A stretch of 64,000 bases of DNA from Microgenomates group bacterium (GCA_041659805.1 JBAZXP010000001.1:512589-576588), one strand, 5' to 3'. Positions 20,180-47,323 are shown, counted from the first letter of the stretch. The notes: a model not told the origin generated them from the letters alone. Translations and numbers: made by a program.

Positions 20180-20586
20180 TGTTAAACAAATTATCGAATA
20201 TTGGCTTAACAATATTAGTTTTATCGATATTTGTTTTGGTAATCCAAAATTTTTATGTTTCTTACTCAAAAATATTAGATCAATCATTATCAAGTTTATT
20301 TAAACCCGTTTATAAACCTGAAATAATCCTGGCTAAGTCATTAGGCCCTCAATTTCAGATACTCGAGTATATTTCCAAGAGTATTCCTGATTCATCAATC
20401 GTATGTTTTCCTGAAAATTATTATAAAATCGTTTTTAACCAAGACGAAGCTTACTTTCATTATTTTTGGCTTAATAGATCAGCCCTACCGGGAGAAGATA
20501 CCAGTTGTCAGTATAAAATAGAATTATTAGCTAATGAGGATAGACAACAAATTAATATAAATATTATAAATTTAAAAAAATCATGA
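20179..20586 (+). CDS. Hypothetical protein with N-terminal signal-anchor
   Basis: 135 aa, one N-terminal TM ('IGLTILVLSIFVLVI'), no recognisable motif. TAATG overlap upstream and ATGA overlap downstream. Confidence 0.4.
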   Translation: MLNKLSNIGLTILVLSIFVLVIQNFYVSYSKILDQSLSSLFKPVYKPEIILAKSLGPQFQILEYISKSIPDSSIVCFPENYYKIVFNQDEAYFHYFWLNRSALPGEDTSCQYKIELLANEDRQQININIINLKKS

Positions 20587-25777: not shown

Positions 25778-26947
25778 ATGCTCCGATTTTTGTCTCCAAC
25801 GACAGCTCTCATATGTATTCGTGACTTTCTAGGCGTATTATATCCTGAGCAAAAAAACGAAGCACATATTAAGGCAGGGTTAGATTGGTTGAAATGCGCT
25901 CAAGATAAAAGTGGTGATGGTGGAGTTGCTGCCTGGTATTCATTAGTCACGGGTTGGATGCCATCCTATATTGAAACAACAGGTTATATTGTCAGTACGT
26001 TTCTTCAGTGCTCTAAATATTTTAAAGATATTGATCTTAAAAAAAGAGCTATCAAAATGGGAGATTTTTTGATAAGTATGCAAAATTCAGACGGAAGTTT
26101 CAGACGTCAGGTGCCTCGTGTTACAAGTGATTCTAAACCGATAATTTTTGATACAGGACAAGATATAATCGGATTGGTAGATCTATATAAAGAAACGAAG
26201 GTTTCTAAATATTTGGCTTCTGCAAAAAAAGCCGCAGATTTTCTTTGTTCTGTTCAAGAAAAAAATGGCAGTTGGGTAAGGTTTGAATATGGAGGCTCTG
26301 CTCGAAGTTATGAAACCAGAACCGCCTGGGCTTTATTAAAAGTATATGCAGCAACTAATAACAAAAAGTATAGAGATTGCGGAATAAAGAATTTAGAATG
26401 GGTAGCTAAAAATCAATTGAAGAATGGTTGGTTCAAATACAACAATTTACCATATCCTGATCCTAAAGAGCCTTTGATTCATACTATTTCGTACGCTATC
26501 GAAGGATTTTTATGGTCAGGTGTTTTATTAAAAGAAAAAAAATATATTGATATTGCTAAAAAAGCTGCAGATCAAATATTGGAATACTTCAATAAATTTA
26601 ATTTTTTGCCCGGGACATTTGATAAGGATTGGAAAACAAAAGATCACTATTCATGCTTAACTGGGGATGCTCAAATATCGCTTGTTTGGTTGGAACTATA
26701 TAAAATTACTAAGGAAATTAAATACTTGAGGGAGGCAAAAAGACTAAATGCTTATCTCAAAAAGACTCAGGATATTTCAACATCAAATAAAAATATAAAA
26801 GGTGGGATTAAAGGCAGTTTTCCTATATATGGAGACTTGGTAGGATTTAAGGGTTATTGTAGAATGGCTTATCTAAATTGGGCGGTAAAATTTTTTATAG
26901 ATTCATTATTAACAGAAGAATTAATCACAAGACATCATAAAATATGA
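25778..26947 (+). CDS. Prenyltransferase/squalene-oxidase-repeat (alpha/alpha-toroid) protein
   Basis: Repeated motifs 'LKCAQDKSGDGG', 'LISMQNSDGSFRRQ', 'LCSVQEKNGSWVRFE', 'AKNQLKNGWF' resemble the Q-x-x-DG-[SG]-[WF] repeats of the prenyltransferase beta-subunit / terpene-cyclase fold. Confidence 0.45.
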   Translation: MLRFLSPTTALICIRDFLGVLYPEQKNEAHIKAGLDWLKCAQDKSGDGGVAAWYSLVTGWMPSYIETTGYIVSTFLQCSKYFKDIDLKKRAIKMGDFLISMQNSDGSFRRQVPRVTSDSKPIIFDTGQDIIGLVDLYKETKVSKYLASAKKAADFLCSVQEKNGSWVRFEYGGSARSYETRTAWALLKVYAATNNKKYRDCGIKNLEWVAKNQLKNGWFKYNNLPYPDPKEPLIHTISYAIEGFLWSGVLLKEKKYIDIAKKAADQILEYFNKFNFLPGTFDKDWKTKDHYSCLTGDAQISLVWLELYKITKEIKYLREAKRLNAYLKKTQDISTSNKNIKGGIKGSFPIYGDLVGFKGYCRMAYLNWAVKFFIDSLLTEELITRHHKI

Positions 26948-28558: not shown

Positions 28559-30142
28559 TCAAGCTTTTCTGTGTCTTATGCCTAGTTTCCAAAGATAATA
28601 ACCCCAGGGGCCGGTAATTGTAGAAAAATCAAGCCTTTCTAAATGGGCTATTGCCCTTGAGATTAAGTATAAAGTTTTAATCGCCCAATATAAAGTAGGA
28701 TAGTTTTTTTGTTTTTCTTCGTAGCCTTTTACATATTTAAGAAGAAAAAAGAATATAAACTTCGGTGGTTTAAAAATGGCAAGGCTGTACAATAAGATAT
28801 TATCTAATGTTTTTCCAGTTTCTAAATATGAGGATTGTAAAGCCTGGATATCAATCTCTGGATGCTTCTTGAAATAATCAAAGAGTTTTGTTTTTGGAAA
28901 AATCCTTAAAGAAAAAATAGTCAAAGTATATGGTCTTTCCAACTCGTAAATAAACTTTAATGACTTGAGAATATCATCCAAAGTAGCAATAGGGTTGTCG
29001 GAAATAATATCATAGGCTGGAGGAATCATATTGTACTTTTTGGTTACTTTTGCCAGGATTTTAACTGATTGTTTGATATTTTTTAGAGATGTGGGGCGTT
29101 CGTAAAAGGCAAGTATTTTTTCACTTCCACTTTGAATTCCCATCCTTCCGCGGTTCATTCCTGCTTTTCCTAAAATTTCCATTTTTTGAGTGGTTACAAG
29201 ATTTGGATGAAGACCACTTACAGCGAAAGGCAAATTGATTCTTTTCTTATATTCTTTGGCAAATTTTTTAATGACGTCTAAAGGTAGCGCAATAAAATTA
29301 TCATCATTAAACATAATTGTTGTTATAAAAGGGTTTTTCTTTATATTTTCCTCAATTTCATCAAGAATATAATCGACAGAAGAGTAACGGATATTTCTGT
29401 AATTATTGTCAATTTTTATGAAGGCATCATTCGCACAATAAGTACACGAATAAGGGCACCCGAGTGTCCAAATTGTCCAATAGCACAAACCATTATACCT
29501 AAAAAAATCGCTCGTATTTAGATTTCGAAACGTTTTTATCTTTTGGTCATAGATGAAGCAATCATAATTGTGATAAAGATGGGGGAATAAACTTAATTCT
29601 TCTTTGGTATTTAGTGGACGGATAGGGTTTCGTATAATTCTTTTCCCTTGTCTAAACCACATATTAAGAGTTTGAGTATATTTTTTATTAATTAAATAAT
29701 TGGAATAAAACATTTCAAAAGGGACTTCACCTTCTCCGATGCAAATGGCATCAGCATGTTTTATTGCTTCTTCCGGATTAATTATGCAATGAACACCTCC
29801 CCAAACGATATAGGTCTTAGGATTGTATTTTTTTACAGCTGTTATTATTCGAGCAACGTATGATGAGCTAGGCGTCATAGAGGAGAAACAAAGTAGATCA
29901 GCCTTAGCAAGTTCCTTAGCTATTAAATTAATATCTTTATTGGTAAGCATGCTTTTATGAGAAGGTAACAGGTGATTTAAAAATGAATAGAGATTGCCAG
30001 GTGTAATAAAATAAATATCTATATTTGGATTAAGTTTACGTGCAACAGCTGCTACACGCCGGAATCCCAGGGCGTTTATACCTTCCTCCACAGAGACAAA
30101 TTTTACTTTTAAGTTCTTTTTATTGACTGTTTGTTTTGCCAT
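28559..30142 (-). CDS. B12-binding-domain radical SAM enzyme (class B)
   Basis: N-terminal ~200 aa Rossmann-like B12-binding-type domain, then 'LGCPYSCTYCAND' (CxxxCxxC). Confidence 0.8.
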   Translation of the reverse strand: MAKQTVNKKNLKVKFVSVEEGINALGFRRVAAVARKLNPNIDIYFITPGNLYSFLNHLLPSHKSMLTNKDINLIAKELAKADLLCFSSMTPSSSYVARIITAVKKYNPKTYIVWGGVHCIINPEEAIKHADAICIGEGEVPFEMFYSNYLINKKYTQTLNMWFRQGKRIIRNPIRPLNTKEELSLFPHLYHNYDCFIYDQKIKTFRNLNTSDFFRYNGLCYWTIWTLGCPYSCTYCANDAFIKIDNNYRNIRYSSVDYILDEIEENIKKNPFITTIMFNDDNFIALPLDVIKKFAKEYKKRINLPFAVSGLHPNLVTTQKMEILGKAGMNRGRMGIQSGSEKILAFYERPTSLKNIKQSVKILAKVTKKYNMIPPAYDIISDNPIATLDDILKSLKFIYELERPYTLTIFSLRIFPKTKLFDYFKKHPEIDIQALQSSYLETGKTLDNILLYSLAIFKPPKFIFFFLLKYVKGYEEKQKNYPTLYWAIKTLYLISRAIAHLERLDFSTITGPWGYYLWKLGIRHRKA

Positions 30143-30162
30143 GGTAACTTATACAATTATTG

Positions 30163-30798
30163 TTATTTCTTATGACAGACGAAAATTAGTGTTGAATCTG
30201 GAAAAATTGGGGAGCCGGTTAGAACCGTACAACCCAAACCCAGTTTACTAAAAACCTTGAGCCATTCTTTTCGAGTCCTAACGTTTATTTGTTCATTGGG
30301 ATATAGAACTTTTTCCCAAAAGTGACCAAACAAAAAGGGTAGTCTGTTAGAAGCATCAACTTCTTTAATAATTAGCAATGAACTCTTGTTTAATTTTTTA
30401 CTAAGAATGGTTAAAAGTTTTTGTTGTTCTTGAAATGGAATATGATGCAGCACATCTACCATTAGGTAATTTTCATATTTTTTGATGGTCATTTTTGTTA
30501 TATTGCCTAATTTAAACTTAATATTTTTTCTTCCACTAATCGACTGTTTTGCACTGATGATTCTGTTTTTTGAAAGATCGACCCCCAAAACCTTGCGTGC
30601 AGGAGAACATATTGCCAAGTAATTGCTCATGATTCCTGCACCGCATCCGACGTCCATAATAGTTCCTGAAAGAGGTAATGCTTTATCTATTTTCCAAAAA
30701 GGTAGTATTAATAGACGGATCATGCTTATGATGGACTTTTTAACACCCTGACTTTTATATATAAAAAAGAATGAAATTATATTAAAGATTGCATGCAT
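30163..30798 (-). CDS. Class I SAM-dependent methyltransferase
   Basis: 'IMDVGCGAGIMSNYLA', 'VLGVDLS', 'MVDVLHH'. Confidence 0.7.
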   Translation of the reverse strand: MHAIFNIISFFFIYKSQGVKKSIISMIRLLILPFWKIDKALPLSGTIMDVGCGAGIMSNYLAICSPARKVLGVDLSKNRIISAKQSISGRKNIKFKLGNITKMTIKKYENYLMVDVLHHIPFQEQQKLLTILSKKLNKSSLLIIKEVDASNRLPFLFGHFWEKVLYPNEQINVRTRKEWLKVFSKLGLGCTVLTGSPIFPDSTLIFVCHKK

Positions 30799-30802
30799 TG
30801 GA

Positions 30803-31765
30803 CTATTTTCTCTTAGGATGTATTGGTTTATTAAAAATACTTTTTACAATATATTTTGGTCGGTTTTTAACTTCTTCAAATATCTTACCAATATACTCCC
30901 CAAGGATACTTATTCCTAGAAGCTGTATTCCTCCTAAAAACAGAGTTAGTACTACGATTAGTGAAATGCCCCGTGGTGATTGAGGGTATAAAAGACGAAG
31001 AATAACTTGTATAACAATACCCACAAAAGAAAAGAAAACAACGAACATGGAAATATAAGTAATCATTTCTAAAGGTACATAGGAGAAAGAAAAAATTCCT
31101 TTTCTTGCCCAACCAAAGTTTTTATGCCAATTGTTTGTAGTTTTACCAAACATCCTCTCTGGTCTGGTGTATGGAATGCCAGTTTGATTAAAGCCTACCC
31201 AAGCCCGTAGACCTCTTAAAAAACGGTCTTTTTCAGGCATATTATTTAATACTTCAACGACATTTCTATCAATTAAAGAGAAATCACCGGCATCTACAGG
31301 AATCTTTATGTAAGATAGTTTTTGGAATATACGATAAAATAACTTGTAGCAAATTTGTAAGGTTGTGGTTGCTTCTCTTTTTACTCTTATGCCATAAATA
31401 ACATCATAGCCTTCTAACCACTTTCCGTAAAATTTTTCTATTAATTCTGGAGGATCCTGAAGATCTCCGTCTAAAAGTACAACAGCATCACCTGTTGCAA
31501 TCTCCATTCCACTGCTAAAAGCCATTTGTGATCCAAAATTGCGGGAATGGTTTATTGCAACTACTTTTTTATCCTTTTTTGCTAGTTTTTCCAGTATATT
31601 TTCTGTATCGTCGGGGCTTCCATCATTAACAAAAATAATTTCATAATCGATTTTTATTTTAGAAAAAACTTTAACTAATCTACTATACATAAATGGAACT
31701 GCCTGACCATCTTTGTAGCATGCAATAATTGCGGAAATTTTTCTTTTAGTTAAGATTTTAGCCAT
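30803..31765 (-). CDS. GtrB/ArnC/DPM1-like GT2 polyprenyl-phosphate glycosyltransferase with two C-terminal TM helices
   Basis: 'ISAIIACYKDGQAV', 'IIFVNDGSPDDT', 'VVLLDGDLQDPPELIEKF' (hallmark DxDLQDPP), then two C-terminal TM helices as in GtrB/ArnC. Confidence 0.8.
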   Translation of the reverse strand: MAKILTKRKISAIIACYKDGQAVPFMYSRLVKVFSKIKIDYEIIFVNDGSPDDTENILEKLAKKDKKVVAINHSRNFGSQMAFSSGMEIATGDAVVLLDGDLQDPPELIEKFYGKWLEGYDVIYGIRVKREATTTLQICYKLFYRIFQKLSYIKIPVDAGDFSLIDRNVVEVLNNMPEKDRFLRGLRAWVGFNQTGIPYTRPERMFGKTTNNWHKNFGWARKGIFSFSYVPLEMITYISMFVVFFSFVGIVIQVILRLLYPQSPRGISLIVVLTLFLGGIQLLGISILGEYIGKIFEEVKNRPKYIVKSIFNKPIHPKRK

Positions 31766-32676
31766 GTTAATGTCCTTTGTATTATAGAGTTGACGTCTAG
31801 ACCATCTAAGCTTCTCAGGTATTTTTGTGATCCTCCGACATTATGGTATTTGTCATCAATGCCAATTATTAATTGGTGACGCAAACAATCATTGCTTGCA
31901 ACATTTATCTCAGCAATAGCACTGCCCAATCCGCCAGTTATATTGTGTTCCTCGATTGTTATCAATTTAGAATGTTCTCCAATGATCTTTCTGATATGAT
32001 CCTTATCTAAAGGCTTAATAGTATGCACATGAATTAATGATGCATCTATCCCAACTTCCTGTAATTTCTCTTCAACAATGATAGATGATTCTAGCATGTT
32101 GCCGGTTGTAAAAATTACAAGATCTTTTCCTTTTTTTATTTCTACAGTTTTGCCTATACAGAAAGCACCTATATATTCATATGACAAAATTGGCTCACCT
32201 TTCTTACCCAAACGTAAATATACAGGCCCTTTTATACTAAACATATCATACGCTGCCCGGTAAGCTTCTAGCGGGTCTCCAGGGCAAATGACTGTCATGT
32301 TGGGAAGCGACCTCATTAAGGATATGTCTTCGATTGCACAATGAGATTGACCATTTAAGGAATAACCGTATCCTCCGCCGACACCAACTATTTTGACATT
32401 TAGATTTGGATAACAAACATCATTTCTAATTTGTTCGAATGCTCTGAAGGTTAAAAAAGGTACAATGCTATAGCAAACGGGTATGAGCCCGGAATGAGCC
32501 ATACCGGCTGCCATTCCGACCATATTTGCTTCTGAAATACCGGCATTAGTAAATCGTTCAGGAAATTTTTCGATAAATTCTTCAAAAACCTCGAAGCCCA
32601 AATCTGCAGTTGACAAGTGAATATTGCTATACTTTTTATTAGCGTTAATTAAGGCCTTAGAAAATGAAAGTCTCAT
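31750..32676 (-). CDS. Transketolase, C-terminal section (pyrimidine-binding and C-terminal domains), split form
   Basis: 'ADLGFEVFEEFIEKFPERFTNAGISEANMVGMAAGMA', 'VGGGYGYSLNGQSHCAIEDISLMRSLPNMTV' are transketolase central-domain signatures. 308 aa is the split TktB size. Confidence 0.8.
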   Translation of the reverse strand: MRLSFSKALINANKKYSNIHLSTADLGFEVFEEFIEKFPERFTNAGISEANMVGMAAGMAHSGLIPVCYSIVPFLTFRAFEQIRNDVCYPNLNVKIVGVGGGYGYSLNGQSHCAIEDISLMRSLPNMTVICPGDPLEAYRAAYDMFSIKGPVYLRLGKKGEPILSYEYIGAFCIGKTVEIKKGKDLVIFTTGNMLESSIIVEEKLQEVGIDASLIHVHTIKPLDKDHIRKIIGEHSKLITIEEHNITGGLGSAIAEINVASNDCLRHQLIIGIDDKYHNVGGSQKYLRSLDGLDVNSIIQRTLTWLKS

Positions 32677-33539
32677 AAATTTGTTTTACTTACAGTCTTC
32701 TTTACTTTTGTCCTTTTAAAATTTAGTGTTTCATCTATTTCCTTTAATGCTATCTGCATGTGTTGAGGTTTGGGGTCGTAATAATGCCACCTGAAATCTC
32801 CCTCCATAAAAGAAACTCCTTTACCAATTATCGTATTAGCGATAATAATATTAGGTTTGCTATCGGAGATGTTTGTTAAGGCTTTTGTGATTTGATCTAT
32901 GTTATGGCCATCGATTACAGACGTACTAAAATTGAATGTTTTCCACTTTGCTTCTAAAGGTTCCATATTAATAATATCCTTTGTATTTCCTAAACCTTGG
33001 GTTCCATCTCGGTCTAAAATTACAACTAAATTGTTTAGATGATGATGTCCTGCGAATAAAGCTGCTTCCCAAATTGTACCTTCGTTAATTTCTCCATCAG
33101 AAATTAGGACATAAATTTTATATTGTTTATTCATTAATTTAGCTGCATAGGCCATGCCAACACCAACCGATAAACCATGCCCTAATGAGCCGGTCCCCCA
33201 ATCAATCCCAGGTAAACCATTTGATTCCGGATGAACCATTAATTTACCACCGTCTTGGCAGAAAGTATCTAAAGTTTCCTTATTAAAAAAACCACGATGA
33301 TGTAATACAGTAAAAAGCCCTGCTCCTGCATGACCCTTACTTAAAATAAACCGATCGCGTTCCTCCCAAAAAGGATCATTTGTACGAATATTTAAAATTT
33401 TAAAATAAAGTGTTGTTAATAGATCTATTACTGATAAAGAGGAGCCGACATGACCGATTTGGACATTATGGGAGATTGTTAACATGTCGCGTTTTATTAT
33501 TTGACACATTTTTATTAAGGAGATATTTGATTTTGACAT
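32673..33539 (-). CDS. Transketolase, N-terminal section (ThDP-binding), split form
   Basis: 'GHVGSSLSVIDLLTTLY', 'DRFILSKGHAGAGLF', 'GSLGHGLSVGVGMA', 'ISDGEINEGTIWEA'. ATGA overlap with the C-terminal section gene. Confidence 0.8.
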   Translation of the reverse strand: MSKSNISLIKMCQIIKRDMLTISHNVQIGHVGSSLSVIDLLTTLYFKILNIRTNDPFWEERDRFILSKGHAGAGLFTVLHHRGFFNKETLDTFCQDGGKLMVHPESNGLPGIDWGTGSLGHGLSVGVGMAYAAKLMNKQYKIYVLISDGEINEGTIWEAALFAGHHHLNNLVVILDRDGTQGLGNTKDIINMEPLEAKWKTFNFSTSVIDGHNIDQITKALTNISDSKPNIIIANTIIGKGVSFMEGDFRWHYYDPKPQHMQIALKEIDETLNFKRTKVKKTVSKTNL

Positions 33540-33548
33540 GTTTTGAAT

Positions 33549-34523
33549 CTAATTTTTGTTATACAAGTCCTTATTGATTTTAAACCAATTAATTGCTTCC
33601 ATCAAACCTTCAGTGAGTGTATTTTTAGGTTGCCATTTGAGAACGTTTTTTGTAAGTTGATTATTTCCTAGCCAAAAACTAGTATCCCAAGGACGGCCTG
33701 GATAACTGCCTATAGCAATCTCAGATTTAGAATGTGCTAATTTCACAATCAGTCTGGTAATTTTTTCAATAGAGGTTTGTTTACCAGAGCAGATATTAAA
33801 AGTTCTTTGATCAAATTTTTTTAATTTAGTACATTGAAGATAAGCATCAATTAAGTCTTCGATGTATACAAAGTCTCTTTTTTGTGAGTTGCCTACAATA
33901 TTAATTTTTTGACTATTCAATGCTTGCATTATTACAGTCGGGATTAATCTTCCCGGCTCTTCATATGGACCAAATATAGAGAAAAGACGAATAGTTATTA
34001 TTGGCTTTTTCATCATAAGTCCGTAGGTATTACAGATTAAGGTGGAAGCTGCTTTAGTTGCTGAGTAGTAACTATTTGGTTCCAAAAGATCTGTTTCTTT
34101 CATGGGATGACTCTTATAACCATATTCAGATGAAGAACCGGTATTTACAAAAATTTGATAGTCGGTGTTTTCTAAGGCGAGTAATAAATTTTTTGTTCCA
34201 TTTATATTAATTTGTACCGCAGATTCCAAAGAGTTTTGTTTCGCGTAAGCACCATATGCTGCCAGATGAAAAATTATATCTGGTTTTATTTTTGATAAAT
34301 TTCTCTTGAGATTTTCTTGATCAGCTAAATCAACTTGTAAAATTTTAACTTTTTTAAGAATGTCCTTAATCCTCCAAGTATCAGAACTTTTTCTTAGGGT
34401 AATATATATTTTTGCTTGTGGGTAATTTGAAATTAAACGCCGTAATAAATTTGATCCGACAAAACCCGCTGCTCCTGTAATCAATATCTTCTTGCCATTT
34501 AAATTTGGTGCTTTTATAGCCAT
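33549..34523 (-). CDS. NAD-dependent epimerase/dehydratase (extended SDR)
   Basis: 'KKILITGAAGFVGSNLLRRL', 'YSATK' catalytic dyad. Confidence 0.75.
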   Translation of the reverse strand: MAIKAPNLNGKKILITGAAGFVGSNLLRRLISNYPQAKIYITLRKSSDTWRIKDILKKVKILQVDLADQENLKRNLSKIKPDIIFHLAAYGAYAKQNSLESAVQININGTKNLLLALENTDYQIFVNTGSSSEYGYKSHPMKETDLLEPNSYYSATKAASTLICNTYGLMMKKPIITIRLFSIFGPYEEPGRLIPTVIMQALNSQKINIVGNSQKRDFVYIEDLIDAYLQCTKLKKFDQRTFNICSGKQTSIEKITRLIVKLAHSKSEIAIGSYPGRPWDTSFWLGNNQLTKNVLKWQPKNTLTEGLMEAINWFKINKDLYNKN

Positions 34524-34581
34524 TTTTTAGAAATAATAGATCTAATGGCAGATTTTAAGTAGAGCTTATAACAACCTACTT

Positions 34582-34595
34582 TGTAGATTTCTACA
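34582..34595. promoter_or_regulatory. Perfect 6-2-6 inverted repeat TGTAGA-TT-TCTACA in the largest intergenic region
   Basis: Seen directly at 34582-34595, about 60 bp upstream of the minus-strand epimerase gene start (34523). Candidate operator or small structural element. Confidence 0.25.
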
Positions 34596-34665
34596 TTACA
34601 TTAAACAAGTAAAAATATCAATGACTCTTAGTTTAAATGATATAGAATGATTTAATAAATAATAG

Positions 34666-35439
34666 TTAAAAGGGGACACAAAGGGGAGAAACGGTCGACA
34701 AGCCCCCATCAACTCTTATTTCTGCTCCAACAATATAACTAGCAAGGTCAGAAGCTAAAAAGGATACTACCTGCGCAATTTCCAATGGAGTCCCCCACCT
34801 ACCCAAAGGAATTTTACTGGAGATCTCATTTACTTTTTCAGGTAAAGTCTTTTCGGTAATACCAGTAGGATAAATTGCACCAGGTGCAACTGCATTAACT
34901 CGGATCCCTTTTGACGCCCATTCAACAGCGGCAGTCCTCATAAAAGTCAACAAACCGCCTTTTGATGCATCATAGGCTCCGTTATCCAAAAAAGCTTGTC
35001 CAGTATGTACTGATGTAACAAAAGTAATAGAACCTTTATCCCCTCTTTTAAGAATTTTTCTCCCAATGATTTGGGTCATATTAAAAGAACCAGTTAAATT
35101 AACATCCAAGGTTTCTTGCCAAACTTGACTATCCATTTTTTCAACTGATCCTTCAGGATTAATACCCGCATTACTAACAAGTGTGTTAATATTTCCCAGC
35201 TCACTTTCCACTTCACTTAAAGACTTGCTAATATTTTCTCTATCTCTGACATCAACGACGTAACCTCTAAGTGAAGAAGATGATAGTTCCTCTATAGTTT
35301 TTTCTATCTGAAGCCTATTAACATCAAAAAGGGCTACAATAGCTCCTTCTTTCAGGAAGTTTTTGACTACCGCTTTACCAATGCCATAAGCTCCGCCAGT
35401 TACAACAGCAATTTTTCCGTCTAAAAGCAATCTTTCCAT
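34666..35439 (-). CDS. Classical short-chain dehydrogenase/reductase (SDR)
   Basis: 'GKIAVVTGGAYGIGKAV' (TGxxxGxG), 'NAGI', 'YDASKGG' (YxxxK). Confidence 0.8.
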   Translation of the reverse strand: MERLLLDGKIAVVTGGAYGIGKAVVKNFLKEGAIVALFDVNRLQIEKTIEELSSSSLRGYVVDVRDRENISKSLSEVESELGNINTLVSNAGINPEGSVEKMDSQVWQETLDVNLTGSFNMTQIIGRKILKRGDKGSITFVTSVHTGQAFLDNGAYDASKGGLLTFMRTAAVEWASKGIRVNAVAPGAIYPTGITEKTLPEKVNEISSKIPLGRWGTPLEIAQVVSFLASDLASYIVGAEIRVDGGLSTVSPLCVPF

Positions 35440-35442
35440 ACT

Positions 35443-36453
35443 TTAATAATGGCTAACTTGGTATTTTATATAACCACTATACCTTTGTCCAGGAGCTACT
35501 GATAATAGGTGGGATTCTTGTTTAAATCCTTGTTTATCAAGATTCAAAGCATCAGTGGAGCAAGTTTGATTTTCCATGCAGAAGAAAGGCTCTGTAACAG
35601 AGGGAGTATAAATAGTAAGATGGCTGAAGTCGCCCGAAGTTTCTAAGTTAATTTTTAGCTTTTCAGAAGTATAATCAATACTTCCATATTTTCCTGGTTC
35701 AAGTCCCGTAAATACATGATCAAGATTTAAACGATTAAGCCGTTGAGGTTGTCTTAAATCAAAAGCAGTTCCTTCAACGTTATCTAATCTTCCTGATGGC
35801 AGCAACTCGCTATCTGCTTTCATCACATAATTAGCCGGTGCCGAAATTAATATTGTTGATTTTTCTGATAAAGCTTTAAAATAAGGATGTAAACCAAATC
35901 CAAAAGGTAAATCTTGTTTTGATTGATTATCAATAGTATATACAACTTTCATACCATCAGTAGAAAGAATATAGTCTAAGGATATACGACTTTTAAAAGG
36001 AAACCCGGCAAAAAAGGGATGATTTTCATTAATTTCAGTATAAGTCCGTACTCGAGTAAAATTCTTACTAGCAATTGGTAAGTCAAAATTCCAAGGTTTA
36101 TCAAAGACTAAACCATGCACTAAAACATTATTACCCTGAGGTCTTTTTAAACCAGCTAAAGAATATTCCTCACCTTGCCAAGAATATTTTTTATCTTTCA
36201 GTCTATTTGGAATAGGCCACATTACAAAAGTTCCTGTAAAATCCCGTGCTCTTAATAAGTCAGAATCACAATGGATTAAATCTAAATCTCCCAACCGAAA
36301 CTTAAAAAGGTTACTGCCGAATTCAGGTGCAATGGAAGCAGTAAGATCTTTGGAAGGATCTATGTCTTTATAAGAAAGTTCAACAACTGGGCTCTTTTCT
36401 AAAGAGACATCAGTTTTAATATTAGCATCAAAAATTCCTAATTCCTTTGTCAT
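35443..36453 (-). CDS. Aldose 1-epimerase (galactose mutarotase-like) family protein
   Basis: 'HGLVFDKPWNF' and 'FGFGLHPYF' (the G-x-HPYF motif of Aldose_epim) with a catalytic-type Glu in 'FFCMENQ'. Confidence 0.55.
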   Translation of the reverse strand: MTKELGIFDANIKTDVSLEKSPVVELSYKDIDPSKDLTASIAPEFGSNLFKFRLGDLDLIHCDSDLLRARDFTGTFVMWPIPNRLKDKKYSWQGEEYSLAGLKRPQGNNVLVHGLVFDKPWNFDLPIASKNFTRVRTYTEINENHPFFAGFPFKSRISLDYILSTDGMKVVYTIDNQSKQDLPFGFGLHPYFKALSEKSTILISAPANYVMKADSELLPSGRLDNVEGTAFDLRQPQRLNRLNLDHVFTGLEPGKYGSIDYTSEKLKINLETSGDFSHLTIYTPSVTEPFFCMENQTCSTDALNLDKQGFKQESHLLSVAPGQRYSGYIKYQVSHY

Positions 36454-36454
36454 T

Positions 36455-37381
36455 TTACGCAGGATTAACTATTAAGTCCTCAGGTAAGTATTTTTGAAAA
36501 ATTTCAAGCATTTTAGGTTGCACCATAGGATTCCCTGCAATAACACCCCAATAATTTGGTCTCCATTTTTTCTCAACAGTTCCTGGGGCAGCTTCTTCTA
36601 TCATTGGGTGCCAATCTAAACCTTGCATATTTGTAACTGTTGCTCCAGCACGTCTGGCTATTAATGCTCCGGGTGCCAAATCATATGGGCTGGTCCAGGA
36701 AGATGCATAGCCATCTAATATACCTGACGCAACAAAAGATAATTCTAAGCCACCGGATTGAAGTTCACGATGGAATCTACCTGATCTATTAGTAATATCT
36801 TTCATCCCGGACCATAATGCTTCAACAAGTTCTTTTTCATAATATCCCCGTCCTTTTCTGACATTTCTTAAAGGTGCAAACGAGAGTAGACATTCCTCAA
36901 AAGGATGGTTGCTTACGTTGAGTGGTTGACCATTACGATATGCTTTTTCTCCTTCTGCAGAATAATAACAGTTATGATTGATGGGGTCATAAACTACTGC
37001 TGATCTAGTCTTACCGTCTACAACTTCCCCGATTGTGAAATTAAATATTGGGATACCGGTCGCAAAATTTGTGGTGCCGTCTACTCCGTCAACTGTCCAG
37101 AATTTTTTTCCGGAGACGTCTTCATCTTTTGAATATTCTTCTCCCAATATCTTGCTGTCAGGTTGTAGATTTCGTATGGCTTTTTTGGCCATCATTTCAA
37201 CCATTCCATCAAACTTGGTATAATTGCTTTTGTCATCATAAAGGTGAGTCTTAACACCTTTATAAAAAGCTGTTCTTAAAATTTTCCCAGCTTTAAGAGA
37301 GATCTCAATTGCTGTTTTTAAAGACTGATCTTCTGACACCAGTGGCCAGTTTTTATAATTTTTCTCAATAGCTCTTTCCAT
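36455..37381 (-). CDS. Inositol-monophosphatase-family (IMPase/FBPase/CysQ fold) sugar-phosphate phosphatase
   Basis: 'ILGEE' metal-ligand motif, 'WTVDGVDGTTNF' (DPIDGT motif), 'YDLAPGALIARRAG' (WDxAAG-like). Confidence 0.6.
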   Translation of the reverse strand: MERAIEKNYKNWPLVSEDQSLKTAIEISLKAGKILRTAFYKGVKTHLYDDKSNYTKFDGMVEMMAKKAIRNLQPDSKILGEEYSKDEDVSGKKFWTVDGVDGTTNFATGIPIFNFTIGEVVDGKTRSAVVYDPINHNCYYSAEGEKAYRNGQPLNVSNHPFEECLLSFAPLRNVRKGRGYYEKELVEALWSGMKDITNRSGRFHRELQSGGLELSFVASGILDGYASSWTSPYDLAPGALIARRAGATVTNMQGLDWHPMIEEAAPGTVEKKWRPNYWGVIAGNPMVQPKMLEIFQKYLPEDLIVNPA

Positions 37382-37419
37382 AGGATGCTCTTATTGGAAG
37401 GTATTATAACAAATTGGCT

Positions 37420-39216
37420 TTATTTTTGGGTGATAGACGAGGTTGATAGTTTTATAATATTGTTTACAGCTTTGGTAAAGGATTCTTTATCAAAATGCTT
37501 AAAATAGATAAGATAAAATAAATTTAAATCAGATAATTCATAGGATCCAACATTAATTTCAATAATAAATTCCGGATTTTTTACAATATATTCCTGCATG
37601 TTGTTAAGTTTATTGAATGTATTTAGGAATCCATTATTTTTAGGAAAAGAAAGTTGTTTTTCTCGAGATTCATTAATTGTTTGGTTATATGTTTTAAATT
37701 CATCAATGCTCGACCCAAATCTTTTTTCATCACCGAATGCTTTCTTCATAAAACCTGTGTATTCATAGAAAGCATAAGGCTTATGTTTTGCATTTAGATG
37801 TATGGTGTTATCAATAAAAAGAAAAGTAGTATTATTTTTTAGTTCCTGATTTCTTTTCATTTGTTCGATAACTGACATTTGTTTATATTGATCTTTGAGG
37901 AATTCTACATTTATTTTAAGATGGTAGCTTACAAACATGGCAATCAATATTGAGTAGATAGCGATTATTATATTTATTCTCACGCGTAAAAAATTACCAA
38001 TGATTTGAATTCCGTAAACGATCATGAAACTGGCCCCCAAAGGGGTCAGCAATAGGTGCCGGTCTGAGAATCCTTCAAGTATTGTGGGGATCTTATTTAC
38101 TACATAATAAGGAAAAACAGCTACATAAAAGGATATACATCCGAGAATAAATAAGATTGTATCTTTTGAATAATGTTTTTTCTTTATATCTTTAGTTTGA
38201 AGGGTGTGTCGCAAGGAAATAAAGATCGCTGTAATTCCTGAAGCAATAATTAATAGATTAGAAATAAGATTTTTTTGAAATAATGTTGCTGAAGTAATGA
38301 AAATAGTTTCTTTGAGAAGATCAAAAATATTTTTAAAGGTTAGAGGTGAGACATAAGGATGGAGCTCTAATTTTATTCCTGCTTGCCAGACTGTTGTAAT
38401 CAATGACATATTAAATAAAGAATAAAAGGAAGAGAGTAAAACAATTAGAAAAGAAAATCCATAGCCCTCAACGCTTCTATAAAAAGCAGTCAGTAGATTA
38501 AACGCAGTTATTTCATTATAGCCCTTGTTGATCTCTGGCAACGGGAAAAAATATTGCTTGTATAGAAAGAAAAATACTGGCAACAGAATAAAGTCAATAT
38601 GGTTAATGATTAAACGGCACACATCTTTTCGGGACTTTAACTGATTTTTTTGCTTGAAGGCTATATATGCAAGAATAAGGATATAAAAGAAAAGCATTGA
38701 ATTGATAGAAAATGAAAGTATTAGGGTAACCAGCGCAAGTAACCGGAAAATAACCTTTTTGTTAATTAAATAAAGAGTTGTTAACCACCAACCAAAATAG
38801 AAGAAAAAATAGCATACGCTATACCAAAGAATTACTAATACTACTCTGGCATCATTCGCCGGAAATAGCAAAAAAAAGATAGTTAATAGTAACCTTTTCT
38901 TAGAATCAATTTCTTTAATTGTGCTCAAAATTGAGTAGAAAAAATATCCAGAAAAGAGATACACGAGAAATGTCACAATGCGGTATGCAGTGAATGAATG
39001 AAAAATATTTATTGAATTAAATATATATGGAGCCAGAATCTGCCCAAATGAGTCGCATGTTGATTTTATTAGTTCCGGATCTTTGTTCACAATCACAGCC
39101 CAATCGTCCCAATAAGCACCTGAATTTAACAAAGATAGGCCGAAAGAAACAATATAAAGAATAACTATTAATATCACGTAAGATAGATGGTAATTTTTAT
39201 TGCTCTCTTTTGTCAA
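37420..39216 (-). CDS. Polytopic membrane protein (about 11 TM) with ~170 aa C-terminal soluble domain; GT-C-like, unassigned
   Basis: N-terminal 'LLNSGAYWDDWAVIVNKDPE' acidic loop after TM1, then a long hydrophobic core. No family motif recognised. Confidence 0.4.
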   Translation of the reverse strand: MTKESNKNYHLSYVILIVILYIVSFGLSLLNSGAYWDDWAVIVNKDPELIKSTCDSFGQILAPYIFNSINIFHSFTAYRIVTFLVYLFSGYFFYSILSTIKEIDSKKRLLLTIFFLLFPANDARVVLVILWYSVCYFFFYFGWWLTTLYLINKKVIFRLLALVTLILSFSINSMLFFYILILAYIAFKQKNQLKSRKDVCRLIINHIDFILLPVFFFLYKQYFFPLPEINKGYNEITAFNLLTAFYRSVEGYGFSFLIVLLSSFYSLFNMSLITTVWQAGIKLELHPYVSPLTFKNIFDLLKETIFITSATLFQKNLISNLLIIASGITAIFISLRHTLQTKDIKKKHYSKDTILFILGCISFYVAVFPYYVVNKIPTILEGFSDRHLLLTPLGASFMIVYGIQIIGNFLRVRINIIIAIYSILIAMFVSYHLKINVEFLKDQYKQMSVIEQMKRNQELKNNTTFLFIDNTIHLNAKHKPYAFYEYTGFMKKAFGDEKRFGSSIDEFKTYNQTINESREKQLSFPKNNGFLNTFNKLNNMQEYIVKNPEFIIEINVGSYELSDLNLFYLIYFKHFDKESFTKAVNNIIKLSTSSITQK

Positions 39217-39261: not shown

Positions 39262-40587
39262 ATGTTAAAAGAAATGATGGATAAATGTGACATACTGATC
39301 GTTATGTTCTTTTTTAAAGGAAGAGATGCCGAAATTATTATTCCACTTAAATATTATTTAGAAAATATATTCCATCTTAATGTAAAAGTTTGTTCAGTTT
39401 TTGATCCGTATATGATTGATATATATAATCCAGGAATTGTATTAATGGAAAATACTATTGGGTCTGAATTTCATGTCGCTTTCGGAAAATATGCTTTTAA
39501 AAAAGGATATCCTATAGTGAGTCTGGTTTCAGAAGGATATTTAACCGAACAAAATGTACAGACTGATTTATGGGGGTGTAACCTAAAGCATGAGATATAT
39601 TTCAATAAATGGTTTCTTTGGACGCCGGGTTTAAAAAGAATGGCATTAAAATATTTTCCTGACCTAAAGAAAAAAGTTGATCTTGATATCTCAGGAGCAA
39701 TTGGGTTTGATAGATATCAGATATATGATTTCGCTGATCAAAGAAAATTTTTAAAAAAATACCATAAAGAAAAATATAAAAAAGTTATCGGTTACGCAGG
39801 ATGGGTATTTTGTTCGTATTTTAATCCTAAAGAATACGAAAAACTTATTAGTGAATTCGGGCAAAAATACTTTTCCTATTTTAAAAATGATAAAGAGACA
39901 GTTAGTAATATTTTGCGTCAAATCATTAAATCAAATAAAGACACACTTTTTATTTTCAAATTGCATCCAAGCGAGATGGAAGATAATATGGATATTTCAA
40001 GAAGTTGGGCGCAAGAATTTGATAATGTTTTAGTTTTTCAAGCAGAGGAGCCTGTAGCAGATATTATCAACGTCTGTGATATTTGGATGGTTTATGATTC
40101 CACAACATGCACGGAAGCTTGGTTGTTGGGTAAGCCAACAATAGTGATTATGCCTTCACCTAACATAAAATTTCGCAGTGACTGTTATAAAGGTAGTGCG
40201 ATTGCTCGTAATTTACACCAACTTTCAGATCTTATTGATAATTATAAAGAAAAAGAGAGGGTGGAAGGTTTTTATGAGAAGAAAAAATATAGAAAAAAGA
40301 TTATAAGAGCGCTTGTTTACAGAGAAGATGGCCTTAATTTTAAAAGAACTGCAGAGAAGATTCATCAATTTCTTATGATATCTTCAAAACGCCGTGATAC
40401 TTCCCTTTTGTCTTTTAAAATTTGTTATTTAATACAACATTTATCATTGGTTTTGCTTTCTAGACTTATTTGGTTACCTTTTTTGAATAAGTCAACAATT
40501 TTAAAATGGTATAACGAACAACCAGATTTTATTAATTTAGAAAAAAAGTATACTCCTTATATTAGGAAATTCTTAAAAACATCTTAA
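39262..40587 (+). CDS. GT-B-fold transferase resembling TagB/TagF (CDP-glycerol glycerophosphotransferase) or KpsC/KpsS capsule families
   Basis: 'TLFIFKLHPSEMEDN', 'IINVCDIWMVYDSTTCTEAWLLGKPTIVI' resemble the HP catalytic motif and C-terminal Rossmann region of Glyphos_transf / Capsule_synth proteins. Assignment between the two is not possible by eye. Confidence 0.35.
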   Translation: MLKEMMDKCDILIVMFFFKGRDAEIIIPLKYYLENIFHLNVKVCSVFDPYMIDIYNPGIVLMENTIGSEFHVAFGKYAFKKGYPIVSLVSEGYLTEQNVQTDLWGCNLKHEIYFNKWFLWTPGLKRMALKYFPDLKKKVDLDISGAIGFDRYQIYDFADQRKFLKKYHKEKYKKVIGYAGWVFCSYFNPKEYEKLISEFGQKYFSYFKNDKETVSNILRQIIKSNKDTLFIFKLHPSEMEDNMDISRSWAQEFDNVLVFQAEEPVADIINVCDIWMVYDSTTCTEAWLLGKPTIVIMPSPNIKFRSDCYKGSAIARNLHQLSDLIDNYKEKERVEGFYEKKKYRKKIIRALVYREDGLNFKRTAEKIHQFLMISSKRRDTSLLSFKICYLIQHLSLVLLSRLIWLPFLNKSTILKWYNEQPDFINLEKKYTPYIRKFLKTS

Positions 40588-40591
40588 AGTT

Positions 40592-42001
40592 TTAGACAGC
40601 TCTGAAGCCGCGAAAACTAGAATCTTTATCAATGTAGAGTTTTCGTGCAGTTTTTATAGCATTTTTGCATGACTGTTTATAATATGCTTCTAGAAGGGTT
40701 TTATTTGCTTTAAATAATGCTTCATGGAATTTGTCGTCTGTCATATTTGTGAAATTAACCGCTAATAGGTCCGAATTGATGTGTTTATTTTCATAAAAAT
40801 CCTTCGGACCTTTTAATAAGCCTTTTTCTATCGCATAATAGTATAGAGGGGAACCTGGGTATGGAGTTACTGGCCGTATGGTACGGAGTTGAGCATGATC
40901 GTCGTATTTTAAAAGAAAATCGACACCTTTTTGCAACGAGGTTCTTGTTTCTCCTATGTTTCCGAAAATAATATTTAATCCGGGGCTAATTCCTACATCC
41001 AAAGTATTTTTTATTCCTTCATGGATCATTTTAATAGTTAAGCCTTTTTTCATAGTAATTAAGGCTTTTTGGTCTAAGGATTCAATGCCATAGTTTATAA
41101 AGATGCAGCCGGCTTTTTTCATGAGTTGTAAAACTTCTTTATTTGCGAAATTTAATCTGCCGTTACAATCCCATTTAAACTTCATTCCCGATTTTAATAT
41201 TCCTTCGCATAGCTCAACAGTTCTTTGTTGAGAAGACATTAACAAATCATCAGAAAAGGTAATTGCTGTAATATTGTAATCAGTTTGAAGTTTTTTAACT
41301 TCTTCTAAAATATTTCCTATTGATCTTGGTCTGAACCCTTTATCCATTCTGTAGCAGAAATTACACTGAAAAATACATCCTCTCCCTGAAAGAACGGGCA
41401 TTAGACGATCGCTTCTTAGTATATTGGGGGTTCGGTATAAAGAATAATGATTTATCGGAAATAATTCCCAAGAGGGAAAATCGATTTTATCTATATCTGT
41501 AATTAACGGTCTGGGCGGATTTATTACATATTTCTTGCCGTCTCTGTAGGCAATTCCATTAATGGGAGAAAGCGAGTGTTTCCCTGCAAGCGCCTTCATT
41601 ACTTCGAGAATAGTAATCTCTCCTTCTCCTCTGACGATAATGTCAGCACCGGTCTTTTTCAGAAAATATTCCGGTTCAGGTGCAGGCCCATGGCCACCTA
41701 ATATATAAATAGGACGTCTTTTTGATTTATTGATAGCATCAGAAAGTTTAAGAAGCTTTTGGTATTGATAATAACCTGCAATTACACTAACTCCGATTAC
41801 ATCAAAATGTTCTCTATCTAATAGGTCTGTGAGATGTTGTTCAGGCCAATGATAAATATCTTGATTATATACAGTAACATCGTAGCCAGCCTTTATTAGC
41901 GGTGTTGCAATGTATGCGAGTCCCTGAGGGAACCAGGAGACTAAAGAATCATTATCATAAACGACAAGAAGAACGCGACCTATATTTTTTTTGGCTTTCA
42001 T
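40592..42001 (-). CDS. B12-binding-domain radical SAM enzyme (class B)
   Basis: N-terminal 'RVLLVVYDNDS ... DVIGVSVIAGY' B12-binding-like domain, 'LSGRGCIFQCNFCY' (CxxxCxxC). Confidence 0.8.
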   Translation of the reverse strand: MKAKKNIGRVLLVVYDNDSLVSWFPQGLAYIATPLIKAGYDVTVYNQDIYHWPEQHLTDLLDREHFDVIGVSVIAGYYQYQKLLKLSDAINKSKRRPIYILGGHGPAPEPEYFLKKTGADIIVRGEGEITILEVMKALAGKHSLSPINGIAYRDGKKYVINPPRPLITDIDKIDFPSWELFPINHYSLYRTPNILRSDRLMPVLSGRGCIFQCNFCYRMDKGFRPRSIGNILEEVKKLQTDYNITAITFSDDLLMSSQQRTVELCEGILKSGMKFKWDCNGRLNFANKEVLQLMKKAGCIFINYGIESLDQKALITMKKGLTIKMIHEGIKNTLDVGISPGLNIIFGNIGETRTSLQKGVDFLLKYDDHAQLRTIRPVTPYPGSPLYYYAIEKGLLKGPKDFYENKHINSDLLAVNFTNMTDDKFHEALFKANKTLLEAYYKQSCKNAIKTARKLYIDKDSSFRGFRAV

Positions 42002-46086: not shown

Positions 46087-46124
46087 GATTGCGAAATTAT
46101 AGCATAAGGAAAGTCATCATAAAA

Positions 46125-47291: not shown

Positions 47292-47323
47292 TTATTTTTA
47301 TTTGTGATATTCTACCACATATT

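Follow-up and report, generated by a model that had tools for sequence, protein, structure and literature searches.

We analysed a 64,000-nt stretch of DNA from a Microgenomates group bacterium, a member of the candidate phyla radiation (GCA_041659805.1, JBAZXP010000001.1:512589-576588; hereafter the window, whose coordinates are used throughout), and in it a block of minus-strand genes around a split transketolase, the N- and C-terminal sections of which are encoded separately as TK_N (32673-33539) and TK_C (31750-32676). The enzyme belongs to a non-canonical clade, here termed class B, in which the residues expected for cofactor binding and catalysis are retained and several substrate-binding residues are replaced. 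We put forward, with evenly balanced confidence, that the block forms the centre of a cassette for tailoring and delivering a sugar (28559-39216, minus strand), in which the class-B enzyme would transfer a two-carbon (C2) unit onto a nucleoside diphosphate (NDP)-4-keto sugar destined for delivery on a lipid carrier. A sequence-only reading of the same DNA had taken the split transketolase to be specific to glycan loci and no part of housekeeping metabolism; its separate clade, its altered substrate residues and the contexts of its close homologues, which were glycan loci in all nine cases examined (9/9), support this.

A distinct class of split transketolase

Open reading frames (ORFs) were compared against Pfam and NCBIfam models. 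TK_N, the subunit predicted to bind the diphosphate of thiamine diphosphate (ThDP), matches Transketolase_N (9.1e-42), and TK_C, with its pyrimidine-binding and C-terminal domains, matches Transket_pyr (2.6e-29) and Transketolase_C (5.6e-21). Pfam recognized only these three domains in the enzyme and no acetolactate-synthase-like TPP_enzyme_N/M/C fold. The best NCBIfam transketolase model, NF004559, scored 233.5 bits with TK_N and 170.9 bits with TK_C against a cut-off of 488; as that cut-off was set for a full-length model and the genes here are split, the shortfall carries little weight. Among solved structures, both subunits come nearest to the split transketolase of Carboxydothermus hydrogenoformans (TK_N to 6yak, 1.4e-69; TK_C to 6yaj, 7.2e-53).

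Canonical transketolase residues are given in E. coli numbering. H30, H70, H103 and H252 of TK_N are the equivalents of H26, H66, H100 and H261 and are invariant, or nearly so, in an alignment of the 23 members of the window's subclade. The H473 equivalent and the ThDP-activating glutamate (E411 equivalent, E49 of TK_C) are each kept in 148/150 TK_C relatives. The ThDP/Mg motif of the window TK_N reads SDG(148)...D178, with the Mg-binding aspartate conserved; the Mg-binding asparagine of the motif is Asn in 18/23 subclade members and Asp in 5/23, including the window (D178). Throughout class B the first glycine of GDG is replaced by serine (SDG in 20/21 aligned TK_N sequences). Judged by these residues, the cofactor and catalytic machinery of class B is intact.

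The substrate pocket is altered. Where canonical enzymes carry R358, S385, H461, D469, Q474 and R520, the window TK_C reads R, E, G, N, C and K, so that R358 alone is kept, and its S385 loop, 'ADLGFEV', is one residue shorter than the canonical 'DADLSKSTKT'. Across the clade H461 is replaced by Gly, D469 by Asn, Leu or Ala and Q474 by His or Cys, and the S385 loop is remodelled. R358 is present in 131/150 TK_C relatives, and position 520 is Lys or Arg in 123/150.

We defined class A by H461 together with D469, which gave 57 canonical TK_C sequences, and class B by glycine at 461, with a small third group left. In the class-A sequences tabulated, position 385 is S or A and position 520 is nearly always R. 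TK_N subunits of class B have GSLGHG rather than GSLGQG (21/21), SDG rather than GDG (20/21) and WHY rather than WHG (21/21), and lack an arginine that is invariant in class A. GSLGHG occurs in at least 117 of the best 120 TK_N database matches, and glycine at position 461 in about 130 of the best 150 TK_C representatives (50% identity clusters). A neighbour-joining tree of 89 TK_C sequences recovered class B as monophyletic in 30/30 bootstraps and the window's subclade as exclusive, also in 30/30, and placed the window enzyme apart from all 57 canonical sequences. Class B includes fusions of TK_C to a zinc-dependent alcohol dehydrogenase (Zn-ADH; P0282) and to a GT2 glycosyltransferase (P0384). 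A metagenome scan with the degenerate motif G[YF]GYSxNGQSHC returned a single contig, which was already in our set.

Other non-canonical split transketolases, distinct from both class A and class B, were seen in loci L017, L036, L053, L077 and L098, and one of these groups has the signature 'RSESLHHR'. The L098 enzyme, on a plasmid of Rhodococcus qingshengii, lies in a catabolic context with an IclR regulator, a major facilitator superfamily (MFS) transporter and dehydrogenases. These groups might be related to enzymes such as the steroid desmolase DesAB.

Class-B genes are found in glycan loci

Outside the window, 20/23 class-B loci hold homologues of the window's extended short-chain dehydrogenase/reductase (SDR), GtrB-like GT2, DegT or PseB, compared to 0/56 class-A loci (Fisher p = 7e-16), with the qualification that several loci are closely related and hence not independent. 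The class-A loci were mostly from Clostridia, one locus was retrieved via a neighbouring gene, and of the two patterns used for searching, one was biased towards class B. A comparison with glycan loci holding split transketolases was what the sequence-only reading had called for, and these counts support specificity for glycan loci. It had also named the finding that would tell against glycan-locus specificity, namely conservation as a housekeeping pentose-phosphate set elsewhere in the genome; within the window, a Pfam scan of 54 ORFs found no pentose-phosphate gene, and likewise no sugar kinase or sugar-1-phosphate nucleotidyltransferase.

Additional class-B neighbours include TylC3-type C-methyltransferases, TylF-type O-methyltransferases, polyprenyl glycosylphosphotransferases and one GmhA gene. 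The hosts are candidate-phyla bacteria, Omnitrophota, Acidobacteriota, Bacteroides, Alphaproteobacteria and Firmicutes.

Annotated class-B loci in cultured bacteria were found by tblastn on plasmid records. On pHY1 of Methylovirgula sp. HY1 the gene order is rfbF (glucose-1-phosphate cytidylyltransferase), rfbG (cytidine diphosphate (CDP)-glucose 4,6-dehydratase), an extended SDR, rfbH (3-dehydrase), TK_N and TK_C. GT2, GtrA and HAD genes are convergent to this class-B operon, the locus includes an NTP-transferase::HAD-IIIA gene, and the best match of the Methylovirgula SDR in the window is the extended SDR at 33549-34523 (6e-37). The order in Paenibacillus cellulosilyticus is rfbF, rfbG, a TylC3-type C-methyltransferase, a 635-aa fusion of an extended SDR to TK_N, TK_C and a TylF-type O-methyltransferase, with a convergent GT2::GtrA fusion nearby. 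Azospirillum sp. B510 has TK_N, TK_C, an extended SDR, an aldo/keto reductase, an O-methyltransferase and a large glycosyltransferase. The transketolases of all three organisms are class B. The window block itself is without rfbF, rfbG and rfbH.

The gene array and its conserved unit

The sequence-only reading had described six co-directional genes with separate, overlapping transketolase sections. All six were found as ORFs on the minus strand: an inositol monophosphatase (IMPase)-family phosphatase (36455-37381; Pfam Inositol_P, PF00459, 6.3e-37), an aldose-1-epimerase (mutarotase) family protein (35443-36453; Aldose_epim, PF01263, 6.6e-32), a classical SDR resembling FabG, glucose-1-dehydrogenase or GolD (34666-35439; adh_short_C2 9.3e-58), the extended SDR (33549-34523; Epimerase 1.2e-47), and TK_N and TK_C, which overlap by 4 bp. 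The peptides it had quoted, 'VDGVDGT' and 'GLHPYF', are present in the phosphatase and the mutarotase, respectively. The six genes stand, and only the limits drawn around them were too narrow. They form the middle of a ten-gene co-directional array running from 39216 down to 28559 on the minus strand, with intergenic gaps of no more than 38 bp except for a single gap of 142 bp. The array additionally encodes a polytopic membrane protein that is probably a GT-C-type glycosyltransferase (37420-39216; 598 aa from a TTG start, 585 aa in the NCBI call), a GtrB/ArnC-type polyprenyl-phosphate glycosyltransferase of the GT2 family (30803-31765), the gene for which overlaps that of TK_C by 16 bp, an S-adenosylmethionine (SAM)-dependent methyltransferase (30163-30798; Methyltransf_31/25/23) and a B12-binding radical-SAM enzyme (28559-30142; Radical_SAM 1.1e-14, B12-binding 5.5e-12). 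As had been remarked, the block encodes no nucleotidyltransferase; the closest such gene, of the CTP_transf_3 family, is at 43752-44477. Promoter and terminator consensus scans of the array gave counts that match shuffled sequence (49 vs 48.4 and 6 vs 6.0, respectively), so that no operon structure can be claimed for it.

The arrangement is not a product of chance, since the same gene order recurs in an independent contig (L092). This contig carries the whole block, that is, the GT-C-like protein, IMPase, mutarotase, classical SDR, extended SDR, TK_N, TK_C and GT2, its GT2 being partial, and the proteins compared directly are 76-88% identical to those of the window (IMPase 83%, mutarotase 82%, classical SDR 88%, extended SDR 86%, GT-C-like protein 76%).

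More distant loci retain fewer of these genes. L090 (TK_N 85% identical to that of the window) has the extended SDR, TK_N, TK_C, GT2, methyltransferase and radical-SAM genes. L005 (TK_N 83%) has a classical SDR, GT2, TK_N, TK_C, methyltransferase and radical-SAM enzyme, with no IMPase, mutarotase or extended SDR, and its flanks are otherwise syntenic with the window. L006 (TK_N 55%) has a TMEM260-type GT-C protein, a classical SDR and a GT2 convergent with TK_N and TK_C, and L088 (TK_N 59%) has TK_N, TK_C, a classical SDR and a GT2 next to two polytopic proteins of 510 aa. An orthologue of the extended SDR (45-73% identity) adjoins the transketolase in three Gottesmanbacteria loci (L003, L089 and L091). 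Outside these, an Omnitrophota metagenome-assembled genome (L068; JAHJAO010000067.1, 308-5454; TK_N 42%) has TK_N, TK_C, GT2, methyltransferase and radical-SAM genes.

Within the window's subclade an SDR, extended or classical, always lies beside the transketolase, and a GtrB-type GT2 is present in 6/8 loci (L001, which is the window, L005, L006, L088, L090 and L092), as it is in the Omnitrophota locus. What stays constant is one SDR together with a GtrB-type GT2, and these usually come with a methyltransferase, a B12-radical-SAM enzyme and a polytopic GT-C-like protein. Three genes, those for the IMPase, mutarotase and FabG-like SDR, are confined, among the loci examined, to the window and L092; they are lineage-specific, and the six genes originally taken as a unit are not the conserved one. 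The classical SDR was considered as a conserved partner and rejected, the 248-257-aa classical SDRs of L005, L006 and L088 belonging to a different subfamily and not being orthologous to it.

We note that identities between the Omnitrophota locus and the window are uneven (GT2 63%, radical-SAM enzyme 57%, transketolase subunits only 42% and 34%) and that its methyltransferase is split into two ORFs. The cassette is therefore either mosaic or in part horizontally transferred.

A proposed route for sugar branching and delivery

From the gene identities, the class-B clade with its residue changes, the synteny and the CDP-sugar context, we infer a substrate, a donor, an order of steps and an acceptor. 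An NDP-4-keto(-6-deoxy) sugar would be made outside the block. One candidate source of such a 4-keto-6-deoxy sugar could be the PseB/LegB-type nucleotide-N-acetylhexosamine 4,6-dehydratase encoded on the plus strand at 51092-52087 (Polysacc_synt_2 1.4e-103); in L067, another class-B locus, TK_N has a homologue of it (38% identity) as its immediate upstream neighbour. The two-subunit transketolase would carry a C2 ketol unit on ThDP, most likely glycolaldehyde from a ketose or hydroxypyruvate, and join it to the carbonyl of the nucleotide-activated sugar, yielding a hydroxyacetyl-branched product. In a less likely variant the acceptor would be an aldehyde and the sugar would be extended by two carbons. 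We favour glycolaldehyde, and with it the hydroxyacetyl branch, because the equivalents of H100 and H473, which we take to be the residues that hold the glycolaldehyde hydroxyl, are retained. A carbonyl of this intermediate would then be reduced by the adjacent extended SDR, in the manner of YerF, which acts after YerE on the way to yersiniose.

The CDP-sugar loci of cultured bacteria inform this order. RfbF, RfbG and RfbH make CDP-4-keto-(3,)6-deoxyglucose, the substrate to which YerE adds a two-carbon branch (PMC12247030). In gene context, the class-B transketolase of the Methylovirgula and Paenibacillus operons holds YerE's position. The fused or adjacent SDR would presumably hold that of the reductase YerF. 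With these loci, sugar tailoring by two-carbon ketol transfer, which the sequence-only reading had suggested, remains our best reading; its wording, that split transketolases in glycan loci 'are thought to' act so, overstates the literature, because the published proposal is limited to Streptomyces nucleoside-antibiotic clusters (PMC12247030). The gap that it had seen, an activated product left unclear for want of a nucleotidyltransferase, is largely closed: the substrate is likely an NDP-4-keto sugar made elsewhere, and the product would leave on a lipid carrier.

The extended SDR scores below the RmlB and LegB cut-offs of NCBIfam. Its motif, 'GSSSEYG', lacks the Asp of the 'TDE' dehydratase motif of RmlB and resembles that of the reductase Rmd (2pk3, 'GSSEEYG'), and its orthologues (45-86%) adjoin TK_N in L003, L089, L090, L091 and L092. 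It is probably a reductase or oxidoreductase acting on a nucleotide-sugar intermediate. A role as a 4,6-dehydratase is unlikely, given that it has 'SSE' and not 'TDE' and that SDR::TK_N fusions lie downstream of a separate RfbG. The classical SDR reaches no NCBIfam equivalog cut-off.

The GtrB-type GT2 would then shift the finished sugar from the nucleotide to polyprenyl phosphate. Its best match is Synechocystis sll0501 (5ekp; 4.9e-77 over residues 9-313, full length), which we take to be the UDP-glucose-using GtrB, followed by ArnC (9hwj, 7.6e-40), and it has two C-terminal transmembrane (TM) segments starting at about residues 230 and 264. It matches NCBIfam PgfS at 5.6e-72, below the cut-off, and also misses the ArnC equivalog cut-off. 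Orthologues (53-88%) adjoin the transketolase in L005, L006, L068, L088 and L090, and no other GT2 of this type was found in the window. These matches place it among the GtrB/ArnC-type polyprenyl-phosphate glycosyltransferases.

Methyl groups would be added by the methyltransferase and the B12-radical-SAM enzyme, the latter a likely C-methylase by its domains. The methyltransferase gene keeps its position in L090 and L068 and has a 47% homologue in L088; homologues of the radical-SAM enzyme follow the transketolase, GT2 and methyltransferase genes in L005 (51%), L068 (57%) and L090.

Once flipped, the sugar would be passed by the 598-aa GT-C-like protein to a surface acceptor outside the membrane. 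A possible flippase for the lipid-linked sugar is an EamA/DMT-family membrane protein encoded on the plus strand (42886-43749; EamA 5e-12; 9 hydrophobic segments). In the 598-aa protein about 11 hydrophobic segments precede a soluble domain of some 170 aa at the C terminus, and W23 and D24 of the 'YWDDW' motif after TM1 are invariant in 18 homologues. It has no Pfam or NCBIfam match and 28 homologues among 5.8 billion proteins. An AlphaFold2 (AF2) model (predicted local distance difference test score (pLDDT) 85.7, predicted template modelling score (pTM) 0.87) gave statistically weak top matches by Foldseek in the PDB to the GT-C enzymes STT3 (6s7t, E=0.055, prob 0.91) and ArnT (5ezm), with EmbC (7bve) lower. 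We regard it as a probable GT-C-type glycosyltransferase that would use the polyprenyl-phosphate-linked sugar.

Weighing the alternatives

Several points weigh against the proposed cassette. The block is without a full-'TDE' 4,6-dehydratase and a nucleotidyltransferase, so it needs an external substrate; no GtrA-family (GtrA_DPMS_TM) or ArnE/F-type flippase was recognized among the window ORFs scanned; and the GT-C assignment leans on fold matches of which the best has E = 0.055. The relatedness of loci noted above tempers the context statistics. To our knowledge, no class-B member has been characterized. The literature proposal of transketolase-type sugar branching is itself without experimental proof (PMC12247030). 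The remaining points concern phosphorylated substrates. Retention of R358 and of a basic residue at 520 is compatible with such substrates, a GmhA gene adjoins the SDR and transketolase in class-B locus L043, the Azospirillum locus also has a kinase and a NUDIX gene, and the IMPase and mutarotase, which our model explains only loosely, hint at sugar phosphates or free sugars.

These last observations feed the alternative that survives best, one that we regard as unlikely: from central metabolites the transketolase forms a ketose phosphate of an unusual kind, such as that of a heptulose or octulose, the SDRs reduce or epimerize it, the IMPase dephosphorylates it and the mutarotase sets the anomer before activation elsewhere. 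The metal-binding segments of the IMPase ('EE', 'DGVDGT' and 'YDLAPG') align with those of the IMPase 9vep, and its Inositol_P score is well above the gathering score; it falls below the HisN, FBPase/IMPase, SuhB and CysQ cut-offs of NCBIfam, all by far. The best solved relatives of the mutarotase are the aldose 1-epimerase entries 4bze-4bzh (2e-16), and an alignment with 4bzf shows H113, H189, D244 and E294, presumably the positions of the His/His/Asp/Glu catalytic set; the GalM equivalog cut-offs are not reached. The two genes stay together in the array of L092. This route would also accommodate the residues kept at 358 and 520, the GmhA, kinase and NUDIX genes, the NTP-transferase::HAD-IIIA gene of Methylovirgula and the TK_C::Zn-ADH fusion, which could mean reduction of a ketose phosphate to an alditol phosphate. 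However, the IMPase and mutarotase are missing from the other class-B loci examined bar L092, including L005 and L090, whose TK_N subunits are 83-85% identical to that of the window, and four-gene modules of SDR, GT2, TK_N and TK_C occur without a kinase, nucleotidyltransferase or phosphatase. The phosphate ligands H461 and S385 are lost, and D469 with them, and the extended-SDR::TK_N fusion and the rfbF-rfbG-rfbH operons indicate nucleotide sugars. A TK_C::SIS fusion (P0366) was considered as support for sugar phosphates and set aside; it is the sole such fusion found and is a canonical class-A enzyme. The sequence-only reading had suggested a route from sugar phosphate to free or activated sugar; as the core chemistry this is not supported, since only the lineage-specific accessory genes speak for it.

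Under the cassette model, the IMPase, mutarotase and FabG-like SDR are lineage-specific add-ons; they may convert a scavenged or phosphorylated sugar into a non-phosphorylated ketol donor, or process a sugar that is scavenged. Among the loci examined, the IMPase gene is found in the window, which is represented identically as L001 and L002, and in L092 (83% identity) only. The nearest relatives of the mutarotase outside the lineage, at about 50% identity, are in Ktedonobacteria (Chloroflexota), and the Dictyobacter homologue (L094, 8001-9038) follows a sugar ATP-binding cassette (ABC) importer, a placement typical of enzymes that act on free sugars. The window protein may be a horizontally acquired free-sugar mutarotase. 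This account of the three accessory genes is the weakest part of our model and the main support for the sugar-phosphate route.

Somewhat less probable still is tailoring at the lipid level, in which the GT2 makes an ordinary polyprenyl-phosphate sugar, the SDR oxidizes it and the transketolase adds the C2 unit on the lipid, comparable to the action of DprE1/DprE2 or the ORF13 epimerase. L005, L006 and L088 pair an SDR and a GtrB-type GT2 with the transketolase without nucleotide-sugar enzymes, a TK_C::GT2 fusion exists, and the full-length match of the GT2 to sll0501, a UDP-glucose-using GtrB, would suggest a common donor. The lost phosphate-binding residues would suit a bulky, amphipathic substrate. 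Neither transketolase subunit has a visible membrane-association feature, and we know of no transketolase that acts on a lipid-linked substrate. SDR epimerases do have precedent on lipid-linked pentoses, namely undecaprenyl-phosphate ribofuranose (PMC11127046). Outside the subclade, class B sits among enzymes of soluble NDP-sugar metabolism (rfbF/G/H, DegT, TylC3-type), often without a GtrB gene, which tells against this order of events.

Candidate-phyla genomes are small, commonly have split transketolases and frequently place unrelated genes side by side, and the window enzyme does match the characterized 6yak/6yaj pair well, but that it is the genome's pentose-phosphate transketolase, set in a glycan island by happenstance, is very improbable given its separation from the 57 canonical sequences, the replacement of three or four canonical substrate residues, the absence of pentose-phosphate genes among the window ORFs scanned, the synteny with an SDR and GtrB-type GT2 that is kept across phyla, and the Fisher test given above.

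The surrounding glycan island

The entire window (1-64000) is a glycan-biosynthesis island; with the genome at about 1.1 Mb, these 64 kb amount to over 5% of it. A nonulosonic-acid pathway at 43752-52087 comprises the PseB-like dehydratase, an acetyltransferase::DegT fusion, a NeuC-like epimerase, NeuB and a CMP-transferase; the fusion, of a hexapeptide-repeat acetyltransferase to a DegT-type aminotransferase, is 508 aa long and is encoded at 49569-51095. Export genes encode a Wzx flippase (52111-53682) and a Wzm/Wzt ABC exporter (55474-57020). GT2 and GT4 glycosyltransferase genes are numerous, and at least 8 SAM methyltransferases are encoded.

The island has four B12-binding radical-SAM genes (28559-30142, 40592-42001, 44470-46086 and 53784-55466), which suggests extensive C-methylation or other radical chemistry on the surface sugars. 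Several GT-C-type genes are present compared to the single recognized GtrB-type synthase (30803-31765). These include three tandem PMT/PMT_2-type paralogues of 537, 542 and 529 aa at 7137-11994; further polytopic proteins, a PIG-V-like GT-C and two unassigned, are encoded at 13869-15008, 20583-21944 and 58091-60187.

A 389-aa protein (25778-26947), encoded between a GT4 gene and an RfbT-like methyltransferase gene, has weak alpha/alpha-toroid matches (Pec_lyase 4e-11, C5-epim_C, SQHop_cyclase_C) and a counterpart in L005 that is 74% identical; on these matches it may be a glycan epimerase or lyase. The gene divergent to that of the GT-C-like protein encodes a 441-aa protein (39262-40587) with a single hydrophobic segment, near its C terminus; a 439-aa gene occupies this place in L092. 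It had no Pfam or PDB match, and a single-sequence AF2 model reached a pLDDT of 34. We rejected a TagF-like reading of it, which had rested on a weak Pfam match of a non-homologous protein at the same position in L005.

Relation to known systems and significance

ThDP-dependent sugar branching is established for YerE-type enzymes of the decarboxylase superfamily and for pyruvate-dehydrogenase-like enzymes (PMC12247030). YerE itself is acetolactate-synthase-like and uses pyruvate as donor to add an acetyl-type unit to CDP-3,6-dideoxy-4-keto-D-glucose on the way to yersiniose A (PMC12247030). The class-B enzyme resembles the YerE/YerF pair in being a ThDP enzyme of surface-glycan loci that, in Methylovirgula and Paenibacillus, follows CDP-4-keto-deoxyhexose genes and has a reductase-type SDR as its partner or fusion domain. 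It differs in its two-subunit transketolase fold, in the hydroxyacetyl unit expected to be transferred and, in the window, in the lack of rfbF/G/H. By this analogy, class B may work like YerE while lying outside the YerE family.

Split transketolases have been proposed as hydroxyacetyl donors in the miharamycin/amipurimycin clusters and in 13 further clusters of Streptomyces (Krug et al. 2024, as cited in section 2.3 of PMC12247030, where none is given as characterized). As described there, these enzymes share with class B, by gene context, the assignment as hydroxyacetyl donors to a keto-sugar acceptor. They belong to secondary-metabolite clusters and to streptomycetes only, whereas class B is found in surface-glycan loci of many phyla together with a GtrB-type step; this comparison is made with the enzymes as that section describes them. 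The Carboxydothermus hydrogenoformans enzyme (6YAK/6YAJ; PMC7661550) has the same two-gene architecture, fold, ThDP/Mg site and catalytic His and Glu residues, but canonical substrate residues, another clade and another genomic context.

On the delivery side, the array resembles Gtr-type systems (CsbB/GtcA/YfhO, PgfS/PgfM and ArnC/ArnE-F/ArnT) in combining a GtrB-type GT2 with a polytopic GT-C-like protein, and elsewhere in class B a GtrA gene (Methylovirgula) or a GT2::GtrA fusion (Paenibacillus) stands beside the transketolase. The proposed tailoring of the sugar via a 4-keto intermediate ahead of lipid loading would recall the Arn pathway. Unlike these systems, the window has no recognized GtrA or ArnE/F, and its GT-C-like protein is without a Pfam family. 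We know of no Gtr, Arn or Pgf system with a ThDP enzyme, a B12-radical-SAM enzyme, an IMPase or a mutarotase. The three-component pentofuranose systems (Kelly et al. 2024, PMC11127046) likewise have a lipid-linked donor, a GT-C and an auxiliary SDR that diversifies the sugar, but they use a UbiA-type synthase dependent on phosphoribosyl pyrophosphate (PRPP) and a MATE flippase, where the window has a GT2 synthase and a candidate C-C bond-forming enzyme. In the literature that we searched, split transketolases were not reported from CDP-sugar or Gtr-type surface-glycan loci. ThDP sugar branching and lipid-carrier glycosylation are known logic; what is new is the scaffold of the enzyme, the way in which the parts are combined and the breadth across phyla.

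We advance more tentatively, at a little short of even confidence, the broader hypothesis that class B is a large family of C-C bond-forming sugar-tailoring enzymes that would install hydroxyacetyl branches or C2 extensions on activated keto sugars, used here in a Gtr-like route to a branched, methylated type of sugar as yet undescribed for these cells. It gives a testable function and candidate substrates to a widespread clade annotated merely as 'transketolase', and Methylovirgula sp. HY1, Paenibacillus cellulosilyticus KACC 14175 and Azospirillum sp. B510 are cultured organisms with class-B enzymes for testing. ThDP enzymologists seek ketone-accepting transketolases as a route to functionalized tertiary alcohols, and a 2025 review names only uncharacterized Streptomyces candidates for such enzymes (PMC12247030).

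Transketolase domains are counted as pentose-phosphate capacity in metabolic reconstructions of candidate phyla and further uncultured groups. If the hypothesis is true, many 'transketolase' calls used in this way for uncultured lineages would be wrong, and the class-B markers (GSLGHG, SDG and WHY in TK_N; GDLGF and glycine at the H461 position in TK_C) offer a simple filter. As to the organisms themselves, which are very small bacteria, the findings suggest surface glycans with unusual sugars, branched and heavily methylated, that are delivered by lipid-carrier glycosylation.

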